From Candidatus Woesearchaeota archaeon (GTDB taxonomy: Archaea > Nanobdellota > Nanobdellia > Woesearchaeales > GW2011-AR9), in NCBI GenBank assembly GCA_016185625.1, contig JACPND010000040.1, positions 1-30,677 on the forward strand: DNA of 30,677 nt. The letters run 5' to 3'. Position 1 is the stretch's first letter. The number at the start of each line of letters is the position of its first letter. The position numbers and the translations under genes were made by a program. Positions 2,171-29,460 of the stretch are shown piece after piece. Under the pieces are notes generated by a model. The model searched no databases and was not told where the DNA came from. It saw only the letters and a list, made by a program, of their open reading frames with translations.

Positions 2171-3280
2171 TTACGGCAAAAAGTGTCCTATGTCTAACAC
2201 CAAATACCTCATAAAATACAAAAATCTTGGCTCCCTAAATAATGTCTTCAGCACGATCGGCCAGGGATTCTCACGCGTGTGCTGCTCTAAAATCGCCCGA
2301 ATCCGGGGCTGATCCATATACTTCACCATTTTGTCAAAGTCCTCATCTGAGAATTTGTCCAGCAGGTTCCGCAGTTTCAAATGCAGCCATAACCGTGTTC
2401 GGACAGGCTTTACTTCTTTTTCCAAATCCTTCCCTTCCAGGATGCTTTTCGCCACCGCTTCTGCTTGTTTCAATCCGGGAACCAGCCCGCCCAGCGTCGT
2501 CGCTTTCACAAATCCTGCGGCGTCGCCCAACACATAACAATTCTCTTTCTGTAACACCTGCTCAGAACAATAGACCGGAATCGTTCCCGCCTGTAATTCT
2601 TTCACTGTAAATCCCTTCTGCTGCATGAACGTATCAAAATAATGCTTCGTATTTTTCATCGTAGCCACGCCAACTCTGGCGATAGTAGCCGACTCCGGCA
2701 CAATCCAGGCAAACAGTCCGGGGCAGATTTCCTTCCCAAAATAAGCTTCATACCCACCAGGATCAAACTTCCCTTCCACCGTCGCCTGAATGCCGATGTA
2801 ATTCGTCCGCGTCGGATGAAACATCCCATATGCTTTCGCGGTCTTGGATAATGGACCATCGGCAGCGATCACGATATCGGGAGAAATTATCTTTTCCGTC
2901 TTATGTGCCGAATCACGTATCACCAGATTTTTCCCTTCCTTGCGCAGAAAAGAATGATTCAGATGCAATTGTGCTCCCTCTTTCATCGCCAGCTCCACGA
3001 AAAACCAGTCAAATTTCGGGCGAGAGACTAAATATTCTTTTTGGTTTATCGTCGTCGAAAAATGAGGGGAAGACACCGTACATTTGCGAAACGTATTCAC
3101 CAGGAACGAATCTTTTGGCAGATTAAACTGGTCAAAATCGTGCGTCAGCAATCCCGTGCATTGAATCGGACAGCCAACTTGAGCATGCTCTTCATACAGC
3201 TCTACGGAATGGCCGGCTTTGGCCAAAAGATACGCGGCATAGCCACCAATGGGGCCGGCACCGATGATAGCAATGTTCAT
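2171..3280 (-). CDS. geranylgeranyl reductase family FAD-dependent oxidoreductase (archaeal lipid saturation type)
   Basis: 369 aa. N-terminal Rossmann motif MNIAIIGAGPIGGYAAYLLAKAGHSVELYE, followed by VGCPIQCTGLL and LGDAAGFVKATTLGG, as in digeranylgeranylglycerophospholipid reductases. Confidence 0.9.
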   Translation of the reverse strand: MNIAIIGAGPIGGYAAYLLAKAGHSVELYEEHAQVGCPIQCTGLLTHDFDQFNLPKDSFLVNTFRKCTVSSPHFSTTINQKEYLVSRPKFDWFFVELAMKEGAQLHLNHSFLRKEGKNLVIRDSAHKTEKIISPDIVIAADGPLSKTAKAYGMFHPTRTNYIGIQATVEGKFDPGGYEAYFGKEICPGLFAWIVPESATIARVGVATMKNTKHYFDTFMQQKGFTVKELQAGTIPVYCSEQVLQKENCYVLGDAAGFVKATTLGGLVPGLKQAEAVAKSILEGKDLEKEVKPVRTRLWLHLKLRNLLDKFSDEDFDKMVKYMDQPRIRAILEQHTRENPWPIVLKTLFREPRFLYFMRYLVLDIGHFLP

Positions 3281-16067: not shown

Positions 16068-16437
16068 ATAATTATACAAAAGTTATGTCCTTTGTATATA
16101 GCAACTGTTAATAATTGTCTAAACACGAGAAATTGGCGTGCAATTTCTGTGCCCCAGAAACTTCCAGTTTCTCAGGGTATTAATGTCAGTTACTATAGAT
16201 AGGGTAATAATTACTATAAATGCTAATCCGCCATCCTCGACAGAAGGGTATATCAAAGTGCCCTATATTTACTCCAAAGATATGTCCTTCGCATGAGCCC
16301 AGAACAACACAGTACTATTTTTATGCTCTCGTCGCCGTCTGCTTTTTTCACAACCATTAAATATTAGTTATGGTTATGATAACTAAAATGAAAATCCCTA
16401 CTGCTTTCAAGAAGTGGGGCATCAAACCCAGCAACAA

Positions 16438-16986
16438 ATGAAAAGCAAGCAAGACCGCCTCCTGGAGCTTTTCTTCAACAGCCCGAAATATTGGCATTTT
16501 GAAGAACTGCGAAAACAGGCAGTTATCGGCCGTCCACAGTTAGCCCGTTGGCTGCATATTTTTAAGGAGAAGGGGATTATTAAAAAAATAAAGCCAAAGG
16601 CGAAAATGCCCTATTATGTCCAGAATTCTCAAAGCCCGAAGTTCACGTTGCGGAAGAAGTTATTTGCCCAGCAGAAACTCCTGGAAAGCGGCCTGCTTGA
16701 GCACCTCGCTTCTCTTCCCCAGGCAAAAGTAGTGATTCTATTTGGAAGCTTTTCCCGTGCCGACTGGAACAGGGAAAGTGATATTGATCTCTTCATCTAT
16801 GGGAAAGACAGCGACTTTGAACAAGGCAAATACGAGTTAAAGCTTCATCGCGAGATCCAGGTCCACACCGCTCACAACGCCAAAGATTTTAAAAAAATAG
16901 AAAAACTATTGCCGTTTATCGTTTCCGGTGATTTTATTAAAGGTTCGATTCAGAATCTGGGAGTTGAAATCCATGCCAAAACCTAA
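16438..16986 (+). CDS. wHTH-fused minimal nucleotidyltransferase (MNT-type)
   Basis: VVILFGSFSRADWNRESDIDLFIYG is the GS-x(9-10)-D-x-D nucleotidyltransferase core. The N-terminus is HTH-like (ELRKQAVIGRPQLARWLHIFKEKGII). I use the ATG at 16438 rather than the GTG at 16414. Confidence 0.8.
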   Translation: MKSKQDRLLELFFNSPKYWHFEELRKQAVIGRPQLARWLHIFKEKGIIKKIKPKAKMPYYVQNSQSPKFTLRKKLFAQQKLLESGLLEHLASLPQAKVVILFGSFSRADWNRESDIDLFIYGKDSDFEQGKYELKLHREIQVHTAHNAKDFKKIEKLLPFIVSGDFIKGSIQNLGVEIHAKT

Positions 16987-17434
16987 GACTGCAGTGGAGG
17001 CGTATGAGTATGGCCTGGCCCAGGGTTTAATCCACAATATCAGTGAAGTAAATCAGGAGAAAGTACGCTCTCTGATGCAGAATGCTGAAATAAATATTAG
17101 CTCTGCTGCAATTATAGCCAAAGCCATAGATTCTAAAGCGAAGGAGTGGATGAATGTTTTTACACTCCATTATGAAGCCCTACGCATGTATGCTGAAGCG
17201 GTACTCCATTGTGAAAAAATTGAATCTCCGAATCACCAATGCCTGTTTGCCGCTCTCTGCATAAAATTCCCTCATCTGTCGCTGGATTGGGAGTTCTTGG
17301 ACAGGCTGCGGATAAAAAGAAATGGCCTCAATTATTATGGTGAAAGTATTACTTATGCCGACTGGAAATCAGTAGAATTACCGCTTAACCTTTATCTTTC
17401 GACGCTAAAAAAAGAATTGGCGAACATACTATGA
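16973..17434 (+). CDS. HEPN-domain protein, partner of the MNT
   Basis: All-helical 153-aa protein with LDRLRIKRNGLNYYG, the HEPN-family R-x-x-R-N...Y-G motif. Its ATG overlaps the MNT gene by 14 nt. Its TGA overlaps the livH ATG (ATGA). Confidence 0.75.
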   Translation: MPKPKTAVEAYEYGLAQGLIHNISEVNQEKVRSLMQNAEINISSAAIIAKAIDSKAKEWMNVFTLHYEALRMYAEAVLHCEKIESPNHQCLFAALCIKFPHLSLDWEFLDRLRIKRNGLNYYGESITYADWKSVELPLNLYLSTLKKELANIL

Positions 17435-20842: not shown

Positions 20843-21121
20843 ATGGCCAAGGCAATCATTACCTTCAAACTGATGCCGGAATCTCCCGATGTCAATCTCG
20901 AGCCAATCAAGCAGAAAGCCCAGGAGATCGCCAAAAAACATGGCGCTCTCGGCCAGATGCAGGCAAAAGAAGAACCTATTGCCTTCGGATTGAAAGCAGT
21001 GCTCATTCTCGCCATGTATACCGTGGAAGGCACGGACTTTGAAAAAATTGCCGAAGAGATGGGCACGATTCCAGATGTGGAAAGTTCTCAGGTAGCGAAG
21101 ATGGATCTGGCGCTGGGTTAG
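20843..21121 (+). CDS. ef1b: translation elongation factor aEF-1 beta
   Basis: 92 aa. FKLMPESPDVNLEPIK...EEPIAFGLKAVLI...EGTDFEKIAEEM matches the archaeal EF-1beta guanine-nucleotide-exchange domain. Confidence 0.9.
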   Translation: MAKAIITFKLMPESPDVNLEPIKQKAQEIAKKHGALGQMQAKEEPIAFGLKAVLILAMYTVEGTDFEKIAEEMGTIPDVESSQVAKMDLALG

Positions 21122-21672
21122 AACTGATCAGACCAAATCTCATGGAGTGAATAATGCACTCGATTTTTGTTTAAGAATTGCAATATTTGTATTCTACGCT
21201 CCATCGGTATAAGAATTATTGCTTTGCCTAGCTTTTTCCCACCAGCTTCTTGCACCAATCCGGCGGCAGAATACGTCTTATTGGCAATTTTTTGTGCGTA
21301 ACCATACAAATTTCTCCAGATTTGCATCTGTTCTGCGGTACTTTTCTTTCTGACATCCAGTGTTATCAAAGCAGAATATTTTGTCTTCTCAGGGATTTCA
21401 GAATATTTCCCGTAGAGCATAATGCCGGAACTGATTACTTCCCGACGAAGCCTCCATTTTTGCAAATTGCCCACTTTCACTGATATTTCGTTCATGACAT
21501 TTTTTAGCTTCCAGGTTTCTCGTGCTCTGGAAGCATCGAACAACTTCAGAATCTTCAAAACATCGCTCTCCAGTTTCTCGTCTGCATCGGCAAAGATGTC
21601 CACATCACTTTTTTCTGTAAAGTCTCCACGGGCTACAGAGCCAAAGAGGATAATTTTGTTAATCTTATCTCC
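21118..21672 (-). pseudogene. nucleotidyltransferase gene that has lost its start codon (5' end abutted by repeat II)
   Basis: Upstream of the track's GTG start (21603) the same frame reads GDKINKIILFGSVARGDFTEKSDVDIF, the catalytic GS...D-x-D core. No ATG, GTG or TTG occurs between that motif and an in-frame TGA lying inside the 97-bp repeat that starts at 21673. Confidence 0.6.
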
Positions 21673-21769
21673 TATAGAAGGGTTTGAATAACCTATCTTA
21701 ATAGTTCAAACCCTTCTAAGTAGGACTTTGAATATCGATGAATGGGATGGTTATTCAAAGTCCTCTATA
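21673..21769 (+). repeat. 97-bp twin-hairpin repeat (family II), copy 1
   Basis: Identical at 97 of 97 positions to 23579-23675 in the same orientation. It contains a 14-bp perfect stem (21675-21688 / 21705-21718) and a 13-bp perfect stem (21722-21734 / 21752-21764). Weaker similarity continues about 15 nt to the right. Confidence 0.9.
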
Positions 21770-22069
21770 GTACTATCTACTAAAAATGAAGCAAAATGTA
21801 AACCGACTGCCTCGGCTATCCCAATCGCAGCAAGCTGTGGGGATTTAGACCAAACCCACATTAAAATTGCCGGAGTACAACCCATTAATAATTATGCAGA
21901 GCAAGCAATTCGTGAAACTGTTTTAGTTCGCAAAATAATTGGGGCGTTCCGCTCCGTGGGTGGAACCAAAACATACGAAACTCTTGCTTCTCTGATTGCG
22001 ACATGGCAATTACAGAAACTGAACATCAAAAAAGAATTAACCAGAATGTTATCAGCAAATCTGTGCTAA
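21728..22069 (+). pseudogene. C-terminal remnant of an IS66-like transposase
   Basis: The last ~70 aa read QPINNYAEQAIRETVLVRKIIGAFRSVGGTKTYETLASLIATWQLQKLN. This matches the IS66-family C-terminal pattern (N-N-x-A-E-x-x-I-R...R-K...G...S-x-x-G...L-x-S-L-I-x-T). The ORF is far too short for a transposase and its first codons lie in repeat II. Confidence 0.5.
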
Positions 22070-22073
22070 AAAG

Positions 22074-22916
22074 CTAAACAAATACCGTTTCTCGGAACTT
22101 TCCAAAACCAATCTTGTAAAACTCATGTCTCTTATTAATCCTTATTTTCACCTGCGGCTTTATCTTCTCGTAACCAACATAGGTAAACGGCAGAAACAAT
22201 CCTACAAACCGCTGAATTTCTTTCTTGCTCATGCCTTTTCCGGTCTTCTTTTTCAATTCCCGTTCCTGCTGCCAGCGCCATCGTTGGTGCAAATCCGGAC
22301 TATCCGGCTTAAGCATGATGAAGAAATTAAGATATTTCCAGAGCTGCTGGTAGGATCTTATTTGTGTTAGTATGGTTGCAGAATGTTCTAAGGTAGGATC
22401 AATGTTTTTCAATGGAATCTTATTTTTCGTGCAGATTTGTACGAGTTGCTTAACTGAAACTGGAGGAATTCCCAAACACCAGCCTTCCATAATAACAAAA
22501 TCCAGTTTTCCTATCTTTCTGTTTTCGGCAATCTCGCCATAGGCGCCGTGAAGAGATTTGTCAAAAACGGGAATTTCTGTCGGTTTTCCTTGCTTTATTT
22601 TTTTCAGGACGGACAAAAGATATTTTATCCGATGTGTTCCCGGCAGGCCGCGGGGGATTTGGTAATAAGGATTATCAGGATATCTTTTAGCGAGTTGTTT
22701 TCGTTCAGCCGCACTTTTATAGAAATCATCCAGTGAGAAAACTTCAACTTTGAAACCTTTGTTCTGTAATTGCTCCCGCAGATATTTCGCCAGCGTCGTT
22801 TTTCCGGTTCCCTGGCCGCCCTGCAGGCCGATGATGGCTGGTCTCGGCAGGGAAATTATCTGTTGCAGTACCGGAATAATGATGCTCTTCGTCTCTTCTG
22901 AAGAAAAATATTCCAT
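22074..22916 (-). CDS. P-loop kinase resembling D-glycerate 3-kinase (GLYK type)
   Basis: IIGLQGGQGTGKTTLAKYL...FSLDDFY...RGLPGTHRIKYL...PVFDKSLHGAYGE...IMEGWCLG...WRWQQERELKKKTGKGMSKKEI follows the GLYK pattern known from plants, fungi and cyanobacteria. I start it at ATG 22916 (MEYFSSEE), one nt after the upstream gene's stop. Confidence 0.7.
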   Translation of the reverse strand: MEYFSSEETKSIIIPVLQQIISLPRPAIIGLQGGQGTGKTTLAKYLREQLQNKGFKVEVFSLDDFYKSAAERKQLAKRYPDNPYYQIPRGLPGTHRIKYLLSVLKKIKQGKPTEIPVFDKSLHGAYGEIAENRKIGKLDFVIMEGWCLGIPPVSVKQLVQICTKNKIPLKNIDPTLEHSATILTQIRSYQQLWKYLNFFIMLKPDSPDLHQRWRWQQERELKKKTGKGMSKKEIQRFVGLFLPFTYVGYEKIKPQVKIRINKRHEFYKIGFGKFRETVFV

Positions 22917-22917
22917 T

Positions 22918-23337
22918 TCAAAAACCGGCCGCTTTGGCTGCTCGCATAAGAACAATCTTTTGCCGAATACTTGAAAATTGGTTCTCTTGGAATCGCTGTC
23001 GAACATCGTTCCACGCTTTTCGATAGGTATAAAAATATTCAGAGAGATCTAAAGCATTGCCAAAAAGGACCCGATGATTCTCGATTATCCCCATTTGTAT
23101 ATCCAGAGGGAGAAGCTCAAAAATTTTCAGACCATATGGGAGAGGAACTTTTCCCAACAAGGCCTTCCAGATTTTAACATTTTCAGCATATTCTTTTTTT
23201 CTGGTAATTACTGCTACATCAATATCAGAACGCGCTGTCCGTGTTCCTTTGGAGTAACTGCCGTAGACAACAAGGTCATACTTTTGCAGCGACGCCAGGT
23301 TTTTCCTGATCTCATCTAAAGATTTTTTTGATGGCAT
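22918..23337 (-). CDS. minimal nucleotidyltransferase (MNT-type)
   Basis: LVVYGSYSKGTRTARSDIDVAVI is the nucleotidyltransferase core. I prefer the start MPSKKSLDEIRK at 23337 over the track's 23385. Confidence 0.75.
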   Translation of the reverse strand: MPSKKSLDEIRKNLASLQKYDLVVYGSYSKGTRTARSDIDVAVITRKKEYAENVKIWKALLGKVPLPYGLKIFELLPLDIQMGIIENHRVLFGNALDLSEYFYTYRKAWNDVRQRFQENQFSSIRQKIVLMRAAKAAGF

Positions 23338-23480
23338 ATTCGATCCGTTCGAGGAAATCGTAAAGATGTTCTTTAATGGCATCAATCCTGGTAAACAAAT
23401 TCATTTTTCGACGGTATTTTTGGAAGCGATCTGGCATAGGTTGAGAATAGTATAAAAGTATATAAAGATTGCTCAGTTTA

Positions 23481-23805
23481 GGCACTATCTTTTTTTGTGA
23501 GTCATGGCTTGGCCAGGAGGTGTCTGACCAAGAGGGCAATATGCTCTAATTAAGGTCTGAAAACCTTCCGGAAAACATTATAGAAGGGTTTGAATAACCT
23601 ATCTTAATAGTTCAAACCCTTCTAAGTAGGACTTTGAATATCGATGAATGGGATGGTTATTCAAAGTCCTCTATACTATTCACTCTAAAAAACATCAGGT
23701 TTTCGGTTGGTCAGACGGCCTGCCATCACCCACTCACGAGATGAGGCAACAACCTCATCTGTGCACAAGTGAAGTCGTTGCTTCACTTTGTGTTTTGGAT
23801 AGTGC
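23481..23805. mobile_element. MITE-like element, family I, copy c (325 bp, carrying two nested insertions)
   Basis: Family I termini are GGCACTATCT... and ...GGATAGTGC, with internal GTCTGACCAAGAG and TTGGTCAGACGG. Flanking 9-mers are CTCAGTTTA (23472-23480) and CTCAGTTTG (23806-23814). The centre is occupied by repeat II copy 2. A further ~50-nt double hairpin (23739-23788) splits the right terminus. Confidence 0.8.
23579..23675 (+). repeat. 97-bp twin-hairpin repeat (family II), copy 2, nested in MITE copy c
   Basis: Perfect copy of 21673-21769, offset by 1906 bp. Confidence 0.9.
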
Positions 23806-25307: not shown

Positions 25308-25444
25308 TCTATTCGTCCAAGTCATCGTCACCGCTGTCCGAATCGTCTTCCCATTCGTCATCTACAGCTAGCCTGTTCATGATTCTCAACCCTCCACCGG
25401 GTAGCTCTTAAATGAGCTTAACTTTTTAAATCTTACGCTGAAAA

Positions 25445-25616
25445 GGCACTATCCGTTTTGTAGGTGAGGCTAGGCCAATAAGTGTCTGACCAAGAGAACT
25501 ATCTGCTCAAGTTAATGTCCGAAAATTATGAATAATTACGTGAGTTGTGCAGCTTGGAAAAAATCTGATTTTCGGTTGGTCAGACGGCCAGCCATCACTC
25601 ATTTTTGGGATTGTAC
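25445..25616. mobile_element. MITE-like element, family I, copy b (inverted relative to copy a)
   Basis: Aligns end to end with the reverse complement of 12130-12302 at roughly nine positions in ten by hand alignment. The right terminus has decayed (GGGATTGTAC). The flanking 9-mers CGCTGAAAA and CGCAAGAAC match at only 5 of 9. Confidence 0.75.
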
Positions 25617-25833
25617 CGCAAGAACCCAATTAATTCTTATTGTTTGCCATTCATACTTATAGTAAGTGACCTAAATTTTTATACAAATGTCACTTACTAT
25701 ATTCGAAGGACATATCAATTTTGTATATCTTGGGCTAGGCACAAGACTTGAAATCCGTAGATTTCATTGATTATTTATGTCCTTCGCTATAACATTCTAA
25801 GAATCACCAATACCCGCTGAAAATTGAGGCCTT

Positions 25834-29287: not shown

Positions 29288-29295
29288 GGCCAGAG

Positions 29296-29460
29296 AGCAC
29301 TATCCAAAAAGTGAGTGATGCGCCAATGAGTGCAGTGAGGGAGAAGGTATAGTGCTGTTCTGAGGTCGGATTAGCACTATCAACACAATGAGATAACTGA
29401 CAAATACCCGGCAATCGATCCACCTGAACTGCTGCGCATCACTCACAAAACGGATAGTGA
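29296..29460. mobile_element. MITE-like element, family I termini with an unrelated core (copy d)
   Basis: Ends are AGCACTATCC-AAAAA-GTGAGTGATG and CATCACTCAC-AAAAC-GGATAGTGA. The flanking 9-mers AGGCCAGAG and CAGCCAGAG match at 7 of 9. The interior lacks the GTCTGACCAA boxes of copies a-c. Confidence 0.65.

Follow-up and report, generated by a model that had tools for sequence, protein, structure and literature searches.

The twin-hairpin repeat present in two copies in the window, by which we mean the whole 30,677-nucleotide stretch of Candidatus Woesearchaeota DNA that was analysed, probably represents a MITE family with an 89-bp unit and imperfect terminal inverted repeats, which inserts at TATA and duplicates it. 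The family is a new one of an ordinary kind, found in a few Woesearchaeota-like archaea, and our comparisons showed that this element inserted twice in the window, independently and recently. The initial annotation had described perfect 97-bp direct repeats 1906 bp apart, and this was borne out on comparison, as positions 21673-21769 and 23579-23675 (both on the plus strand) are identical at 97/97 positions, in direct orientation and 1906 bp apart from start to start. Copy 1 consists of a TATA (21673-21676), the 89-bp element (21677-21765) and a second TATA (21766-21769) and is situated inside the coding sequence of a nucleotidyltransferase (NTase) gene. Copy 2, equal to copy 1 and with TATA on both sides as well, is situated in the central part of another MITE. 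Outside the 97 nt the similarity of the flanks is not significant (right flanks p=0.3), and the boundaries of the repeat are therefore sharp; a repeat longer than 97 nt, or a copy 1 with MITE-derived flank, was rejected for the same lack of significant similarity. The junction between the NTase gene and the repeat was found also in Logan contigs of the runs SRR12113385, SRR12113420, SRR12113424 and SRR12113431, as was the segment 21740-23607, reaching from within copy 1 to within copy 2, and one Logan contig (L012) starts in one repeat copy and ends in the other. Since independent assemblies of several runs reproduce the same junctions, the repeat is not an artefact of one assembly.

In both copies the sequence folds into a 14-bp and a 13-bp stem, each perfectly paired as had been described earlier, with loops of 16-17 nt. 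The predicted fold is very stable for both strands (RNA -41.9 kcal/mol, z=-6.6; DNA -24.8 kcal/mol, z=-8.8), and no shuffled sequence was equally stable in either case. The ends had been called weakly inverted; they are indeed inverted, but not weakly, as the arms span 21-22 nt including the TATA and are 86% complementary. Within the 89-bp unit, the tips of which read GAAGGG...GTCCTC (ends GAAGGGTTTGAATAACC...GGTTATTCAAAGTCCTC), the left terminal inverted repeat GAAGGGTTTGAATAACC occupies 21677-21693 on the plus strand (23583-23599 in copy 2) and the right one, read inward on the minus strand as GAGGACTTTGAATAACC, occupies 21749-21765 (23655-23671 in copy 2). These 17-bp repeats are imperfect, with 14/17 matching positions, and are kept in all five variants of the element described below. 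The element is dyad-symmetric overall, the edges of the loops (TAACC/GGTTA) included, and read inward from either end the sequence has stops in all three frames and thus no coding capacity. Each terminal inverted repeat is also paired with an internal inverted copy of itself, so that each end is a perfect palindrome. The two hairpins differ in the alignment by a compensated block of four nucleotides (AGGG/CCCT versus GGAC/GTCC), by which the pairing within each hairpin is preserved. The stems start at the third base of the left TATA and stop 5 nt before the right boundary.

The NTase gene provides the most direct evidence for insertion. According to the initial annotation, copy 1 decapitates this gene. 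We found instead that the 5' end of the gene lies directly across the repeat. The 3' part (21118-21676, minus strand) runs from IGDKINKIILFGS to the stop codon of a DPANN-type protein of about 207 aa with Polbeta/NTP_transf_2 domains, and the 5' part (21766-21861, minus strand), ending in ...LHFASFLVDST followed by I, has been displaced by the insertion and now lies between copy 1 and an IS66-like remnant. Deleting exactly 93 nt, that is the element and one TATA, makes the open reading frame uninterrupted again. The product of this deletion, FASFLVDSTIGDKINKIILFGS, aligns without gaps with seven homologues and has invariant residues on either side of the junction; the homologues are 206-208 aa long. 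When different deletions were scored against a profile of 96 homologues, the highest score was obtained with 93 nt (316.1 bits), followed by 90 nt (311.0), 96 nt (309.0), 97 nt (299.5) and 95 nt (294.4), the in-frame variants aligning from profile position 11. Restoration of the gene by the 93-nt deletion indicates that the inserted unit is the 89-bp element together with a 4-bp TATA duplication. Combined with terminal inverted repeats, such a duplication is typical of MITEs moved by a DDE transposase. The gene is otherwise without defect, and its annotation should be corrected from a truncated to a recently interrupted gene. This agrees with the suggestion made earlier of a recent mobile element, which is small and non-coding, has hairpin-forming ends and is present in two copies identical at every position.

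The absence of a target-site duplication, also stated in the initial annotation, did not hold, as TATA flanks both ends of the element and the pre-insertion gene has a single TATA (reconstructed empty site ...ATCTCCTATAGTACTATC...). Judged from the sequence, the TATA is a 4-bp target-site duplication, for which the direct reconstruction of an empty site comes from one site only, the NTase gene. A constant TATA could also arise without duplication, if an element itself ending in TATA inserted beside a TATA. A TA duplication of the Tc1/IS630 type was rejected, since deletion of 95 nt leaves the NTase gene frameshifted. Around copy 2, a longer duplication (the 7-nt AAAACAT) was rejected because the repeats are not equidistant from the element, and the similarity between the left and right flanks of that copy (p about 0.03) was dropped as low-complexity or palindromic MITE sequence.

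The host of copy 2 is an inverted-repeat element of about 180 bp, the 'family I' MITE, of which the left half lies at 23493-23578 and the right half at 23676-23760 (both plus strand). As had been noted earlier, copy 2 is inside this MITE: when 93 nt are removed, the host aligns gap-free across its centre with two intact copies. The DNA between the two copies of the repeat thus begins with the 5' end of the NTase gene and ends with half of another MITE. Between these there are, as the initial annotation had listed, an IS66-like remnant, a kinase gene and an MNT gene. The remnant (21854-22085, plus strand) comprises the 3' part of an IS66-family transposase, covering positions 322-386 of the 387 in the NCBIfam IS66 model, and the right end of the insertion sequence (...GCTAAACAAATAC), and is an older, unrelated element; DNA homology to another locus (L018) is confined to exactly these coordinates. 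The P-loop nucleoside/nucleotide-kinase-like gene (22074-22916, minus strand; 280 aa as called in independent contigs) has its last three codons and stop within the IS66-like end, and it is abutted by the MNT-type NTase gene (22918-23337, minus strand; 139 aa), the gene calls for which come from L012. The IS66-like element was also considered as source or partner of the repeat and rejected, as the end of this element, GCTAAACAAATAC, shows no relation to the repeat, and the same remnant occurs at eight loci without the twin-hairpin element.

Direct repeats of 97 bp flanking 1.8 kb of DNA that is somewhat AT-richer than its surroundings could in principle be the ends of a 2-kb composite or cassette unit, or mark an integrated 1906-bp circle, that carries the kinase-MNT module, and a contig running from one copy to the other, such as L012, would also fit a circle. 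We regard this as extremely unlikely. The NTase gene continues across copy 1, so that the supposed interior includes the 5' portion of a gene whose 3' end lies outside, and the host MITE likewise continues across copy 2. Moreover, the interior contains an older and unrelated IS66-like remnant wedged between resident genes, and in other genomes the copies are solo, 2.9-4.4 kb apart and in mixed orientation. It was thus shown that each copy simply inserted into DNA already resident there and that the intervening 1.8 kb is not cargo; the copies do not bracket an accessory module as had been proposed, and the kinase-MNT pair should not be annotated as a mobilised cassette.

Further copies had been expected elsewhere, and genome searches found them in other genomes with equally sharp boundaries. 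The family is represented by five sequence variants, dispersed over six loci with unrelated flanks in at least two genomes of Woesearchaeota type. Two copies are in the window, three in the UBA10194-like contigs L003/L006 and one at L005, and all are bounded by TATA-GAAGG...CCTC-TATA, so that the element has TATA at either end at 6/6 loci. The search pattern matched only one contig in 185,579 species genomes and three true metagenome contigs, and viral contigs, plasmids and phages searched for the hairpin and tip patterns gave chance matches or none. Most copies are intergenic, and their orientation relative to the neighbouring genes is mixed. The copy at L005 is situated just downstream of an orc1/cdc6-like gene. 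In a UBA10194-like species the same three copies were found, identical, in 10/10 strain contigs (at least 98.6% identical), these being the contigs with identical L21e protein. Among these ten contigs there were no empty sites and no presence/absence polymorphism, and protein identity to the next closest relatives is about 70%. The copies in this species are fixed, so activity of the element is evidenced by the pair in the window only.

Variation among the five variants is concentrated in the loops, where 22/34 columns are variable compared to 4/64 elsewhere (Fisher p about 1e-9). The left terminal inverted repeat is invariant but for one A>T, the inner arms of the hairpins are as invariant as the outer arms, and even among old paralogues within one genome the loops drift and the stems do not. 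No compensatory changes were seen among the variants, and all three stem changes that were observed break pairs. Variation in the loops together with the lack of compensatory changes indicates that the constraint is on primary sequence, not on pairing alone. Invariant stems with drifting loops, the stable fold of both strands, the fixation in all ten strain contigs and the mostly intergenic position would be expected also if the repeat were a structured small-RNA gene, an alternative raised already in the initial annotation, or a cis element kept by the host (terminator, insulator or protein-binding site), its mobility being secondary or historical. This explanation is very improbable, as pairs are broken and not compensated, the copies have no consistent orientation to neighbouring genes, and one of them splits a gene and another a MITE, with target duplication. 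In addition, Rfam covariance models gave no match at the gathering score, and a permissive scan gave only sub-threshold generic microRNA-hairpin hits. An origin-recognition or centromere-like site was considered separately, in view of the orc1/cdc6-like gene beside the L005 copy, and dropped after the insertion in coding sequence and the duplication were found.

As a MITE, the element would depend for its movement on a DDE-type cut-and-paste transposase acting in trans. This enzyme would recognise the conserved arms and cut TATA with a 4-bp stagger. No transposase with matching ends was found in the window or in the roughly 20 kb surrounding the related copies. The best guess would be an IS5-family enzyme, on the basis of the 4-bp target-site duplication and the similarity of the tips. 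The left tip GAAGGGTTTGAATAACC matches the left end of Escherichia coli IS5, GGAAGGTGCGAATAAGC, at 12/17 positions tip to tip (p about 1e-4, in a post hoc comparison and uncorrected), whereas the right tip matches the IS5 end poorly in the same kind of post hoc comparison (7-9/17). IS5 duplicates a 4-bp YTAR (PMC5009759), and the element resembles it in duplicating 4 bp of a short palindromic motif that contains TA. Unlike IS5, it targets TATA, which does not fit YTAR, and it is without a transposase gene. The kinship with IS5 suggested by these sequences is a lead rather than a demonstrated membership.

The initial annotation had favoured an IS200/IS605-derived, palindrome-associated origin. 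In such a case the element would be a PATE, or an archaeal analogue of REPIN/BIME, moved as ssDNA by a Y1 (HUH) transposase to a position beside TATA, without duplication. Much of the anatomy invites this comparison: the element is for the most part a pair of perfect hairpins, the 4-nt block by which these differ is compensated so that pairing is kept, inner and outer arms are equally invariant, and the flank is constantly TATA. BIME and REPIN are doublets of related hairpins in inverted orientation, and the layout of the element is alike. We nevertheless consider this origin very unlikely. Elements of the IS200/IS605 type have asymmetric ends without terminal inverted repeats and insert without target duplication, and their subterminal hairpins lie at some distance from the cleavage sites and have guide tetranucleotides at their foot. 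The present element is dyad-symmetric overall, with inverted repeats at its termini, and its stems begin within the flanking TATA, leaving no space for a guide tetranucleotide. The net gain of 93 nt at the NTase site, with TATA on either side, also counts against PATE insertion without duplication, and an ordinary target-site duplication with DDE-type ends is what the initial annotation itself had set against its IS200/IS605 reading. Furthermore, the loops of 16-17 nt far exceed in size the ones known from TnpA or RAYT hairpins. As had been noted earlier, no TnpA (Y1) or TnpB was found among the window ORFs scanned, nor among the Pfam hits precomputed for the related loci, and no RAYT gene was seen in the window or at these loci.

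In being short, non-coding and hairpin-rich with a constant flank motif, the element is like PATEs, from which it differs in its terminal inverted repeats and 4-bp flanking repeat and in that TnpA/TnpB were not found nearby. REPs and REPINs are strictly extragenic, occur in tens to hundreds of copies and have an associated RAYT gene, the Y1 transposase by which they are mobilised; to our knowledge, a REP/BIME/REPIN-RAYT system has not been described in archaea. The element shares with them a length of about 100 bp, a mostly extragenic position and arms better conserved than the spacer. Unlike them, it has large loops and a duplicated TATA flank, its copies are few and one of them interrupts a coding sequence, and no RAYT was seen.

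The features of the element match the published definition of MITEs (PMC10969869). Like prokaryotic MITEs, including those of the archaea Sulfolobus, Halobacterium and Haloquadratum (PMC10969869, PMC11602168), it is shorter than 500 bp, non-coding and multi-copy, carries terminal inverted repeats, is flanked by a short direct repeat, inserts at AT-rich and mostly intergenic sites, folds stably and is restricted to a lineage. DPANN and Woesearchaeal genomes have already been reported as MITE-rich, and one Woesearchaeal genome ranks with the archaeal genomes of highest MITE density (PMC11602168). In contrast to prokaryotic MITEs, the element is little more than two perfect palindromes placed back to back, its inner arms are conserved like the tips, its target is strictly TATA, and its copy number in the data at hand is very low.

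The MITE model requires only the outer arms, and it leaves the invariance of the inner arms without explanation. The inner arms are constrained as strongly as the outer, which suggests that they are extra transposase-binding sites, or that a hairpin or cruciform is required. It is also conceivable, if unlikely, that the hairpins themselves are the functional substrate, either in a hairpin- or cruciform-dependent transposition (REPIN-like, with an unseen enzyme) or in a TATA-box-homing element co-opted at promoters. We keep this explanation in view because of the invariant inner arms, the compensated 4-nt block and one promoter-like pre-insertion site. At that site, the related locus L003b, the reconstructed pre-insertion sequence AAAAATTTATATAAATAG lies about 25 nt upstream of the ATG of a small ORF and, from its sequence and position, looks like a promoter TATA box.

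These results add a well-delimited MITE family to the DPANN archaea, the mobile elements of which are known mostly from bulk censuses. A double palindrome in which the inner arms too are constrained is an unusual layout among MITEs, and otherwise the element is ordinary genome furniture. Archaeal promoters are defined by TATA boxes, and with its strict TATA target such an element could split archaeal promoters or re-create them.

The two repeats (copy 1, 21673-21769; copy 2, 23579-23675) lie in direct orientation 1906 bp apart and are identical at 97/97 nt, while the similarity of their flanks outside the 97 nt was not significant. In each copy there are two stem-loops, one with a perfect 14-bp stem (arms TAGAAGGGTTTGAA/TTCAAACCCTTCTA) and one with a perfect 13-bp stem (arms AGGACTTTGAATA/TATTCAAAGTCCT), both with loops of 16-17 nt, and the outer arms make an inverted repeat of 21-22 nt with 86% complementarity. 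The folds were far better than those of shuffles as RNA of the plus strand (-41.9 kcal/mol, z=-6.6), as RNA of the minus strand (-39 kcal/mol, z=-5.2) and as DNA (-24.8 kcal/mol, z=-8.8). Repeat comparison and folding together confirmed the identical direct repeats with two perfect hairpins. No Rfam family matched the element.

The initial annotation described the nucleotidyltransferase (NTase) gene as decapitated by copy 1, with no target-site duplication, and neither point held. Homologues of the NTase have 206-208 aa and the gene in the window is without about 23 N-terminal residues, but exactly this part is encoded by 90 nt on the far side of copy 1 (21770-21861, minus strand). Removal of 21677-21769 (93 nt, the element and one TATA) yields ...LHFASFLVDSTIGDKINKIILFGSVARGD... 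and restores a gene that aligns gap-free to seven homologues (consensus FASFLLDSKIGxKINKIILFGS), with invariant residues flanking the junction on both sides. When deletions of 84-102 nt were scored against a profile of 96 NTase homologues, the score peaked at 93 nt (316.1 bits), followed by 90 nt (311.0 bits) and 96 nt (309.0 bits), and the match reached the N-terminal part (positions 11-207) with in-frame deletions only. The gene thus held a single TATA before an insertion that brought 89 bp and the second TATA. Neither a duplication of TA (removal of 95 nt, 294.4 bits) nor an insertion without duplication (removal of 97 nt, 299.5 bits) was accepted.

Copy 2 sits, as had been noted earlier, in the centre of a MITE of another family, and after removal of 93 nt this host MITE (23493-23578 plus 23676-23760, +) shows no gap across its centre when aligned with the two intact copies (25440-25617, +; 12130-12308, -). 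The MITE centre is too diverged for a call on whether the target was the TATAGA named in the initial annotation. The host family is MITE-like (about 180 bp) and unrelated to the twin-hairpin element; it has the ends GGCACTATCC...GGATAGTGCC, an internal palindrome (GTCTGACCAA/TTGGTCAGAC), three good copies of 85-93% identity and a more diverged one at 29294-29459.

Assembly breaks are expected at a repeated palindrome. Here the contig breaks fall inside the repeat, yet the junctions recur across assemblies, and the copy-bearing structure is backed by contigs from four sequencing runs, assembled independently. Three contigs with an identical aEF-1beta protein traverse the NTase and end 7-29 nt into copy 1, and one contig (L012) equals 21740-23607 exactly, starting within copy 1 and ending within copy 2. 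The short contigs alone could be read as one chromosomal copy plus a 1906-bp circle, but this is unlikely because copy 1 is a simple insertion into the NTase with a 4-bp duplication.

The DNA between the copies had been proposed to be an accessory module bracketed by them. It consists, from left to right, of the NTase 5' end, a 232-bp IS66-family 3' remnant (21854-22085) that has an end of its own, GCTAAACAAATAC, a gene for a P-loop kinase, the final three codons of which extend into the IS end, an abutting MNT gene (also of NTase type) and the host MITE's left half. It is a resident patchwork that happens to separate two insertions, not a module that they brought. The IS66-family remnant is not confined to the window: dozens of Woesearchaeota contigs have C-terminal fragments of 104 aa that are nearly identical (up to 93%). 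The DNA of two such loci, L018 and L019, departs directly past their common IS end GCTAAACAAATACAA, which marks a rearrangement breakpoint, and no full-length IS66-family copy was seen among loci L018-L025.

The window DNA is archaeal: among its products are aEF-1beta and a zinc-finger protein of the HVO_2753 type, and its protein homologues carry the names Woesearchaeota or Nanoarchaeota. An archaeal intron-containing tRNA gene (12499-12617, -; Rfam 46 bits), whose anticodon region carries about 50 nt of inserted sequence and which ARAGORN in bacterial mode missed, adjoins a copy of the host MITE family. The second copy of a 117-nt direct repeat (564-680 and 2197-2313; 116/117 identical, 1633 bp apart) overlaps a geranylgeranyl-reductase-like gene (2171-3280, -) at its 3' end. 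Toxin-antitoxin or defence-like genes are abundant: an NTase and a small partner ORF (16414-16986 and 16928-17434, +) with matches to PDC-M05A (E=6e-14) and PDC-M05B (E=3e-4), which form a candidate defence pair in PADLOC, a PIN-domain gene (12658-13032) and two further NTases.

In a scan of one genome for each of 185,579 species, a pattern describing the two hairpins matched one contig only, from Candidatus Woesearchaeota UBA10194, and in metagenomes it gave three true matches plus three terminator-like hairpins that are unrelated. Additional copies, missed by the strict pattern, were recovered with BLASTN and an nhmmer profile; viral, plasmid and phage collections held nothing similar. The family comprises six loci with five sequence variants: the identical pair in the window, three intergenic copies of mixed orientation within 7.4 kb (2.9 and 4.4 kb apart) in the UBA10194-like species, and one in the contig L005, flanked by the 3' ends of an orc1/cdc6-like and a MazG-like gene. 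All are 97-98 nt with the bounds TATA-GAAGG...CCTC-TATA, and the sequence outside is unrelated. About 750 bp downstream of the orc1/cdc6-like gene, L005 also carries three TTTCTG-N-ACAGAAA-type palindromes in about 200 bp (1300-1520), which could be origin-recognition boxes. In one strain contig (L028, 2126-2971) an SfLAP/DsbD-like ORF of 255 aa, not 235 aa, enters the element and stops there, illustrating the stops in three frames in its arms. At another of these loci (L003 6640-6800, equal to L001 150-300), removal of the element and one TATA gives AAAAATTTATATAAATAGAGG. The ATG of a zinc-finger-like ORF (44 aa) follows about 25 nt downstream, and the element seems to have inserted into a promoter-like TATA box here.

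The insertions in the window are recent, as had been suggested, since the two copies are 100% identical and the interrupted NTase has no other defect. The three copies of the UBA10194-like species differ mutually at 4-12 positions and were present, identical, in 10/10 strain contigs examined (contigs at least 98.6% identical overall); there the element is old and fixed. Among the five variants, variable columns are concentrated in the loops (22/34 vs 4/64 in stems, linker and termini; Fisher p about 1e-9). Compensatory changes were absent among these copies and all three stem changes break a pair, which suggests that the primary sequence itself is constrained, as would be expected if a protein recognises it. 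Relative to hairpin 1, hairpin 2 is a diverged copy in inverted orientation, with a likeness that extends to the loop edges TAACC/GGTTA, and one fully compensated block (AGGG/CCCT vs GGAC/GTCC), constant in all copies, differs between them, pointing to preservation of local palindromy itself. The inner arms are no less invariant than the tips, an observation not predicted by a simple MITE model in which only the tips matter. Because of these constrained inner arms a REPIN-like element, which has the hairpin-doublet layout in common, is retained as a minor rival, but it does not fit the copy number, the insertion into a gene or the size of the loops.

We conclude that the twin-hairpin repeat is a real, recently active mobile element and a new MITE family. 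It is short and non-coding, with terminal inverted repeats, a fixed-length flanking duplication, a stable fold and AT-rich, mostly intergenic sites, and the published definition of prokaryotic MITEs fits these combined traits (PMC10969869). The IS200/IS605 derivation with hairpin ends, favoured by the initial annotation, is contradicted by the inverted repeats, the symmetry, the 4-bp duplication and the placement of the hairpins. No transposase genes are encoded in the window. A DDE transposase supplied in trans, the standard mechanism for MITE-type elements, would move the element. Our best guess for the mobiliser is an IS5-family enzyme, because the left tip GAAGGGTTTGAATAACC agrees from the first base with the end of E. 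coli IS5 GGAAGGTGCGAATAAGC at 12/17 positions in a post hoc comparison and IS5 makes 4-bp duplications (PMC5009759). The guess is weakened by the post hoc nature of this likeness, by the poor match of the right tip and by the IS5 target, YTAR rather than TATA. MITE-rich Woesearchaeal genomes have been reported before (PMC11602168), and what remains noteworthy here is the strict TATA target in an archaeon together with the double-palindrome architecture.
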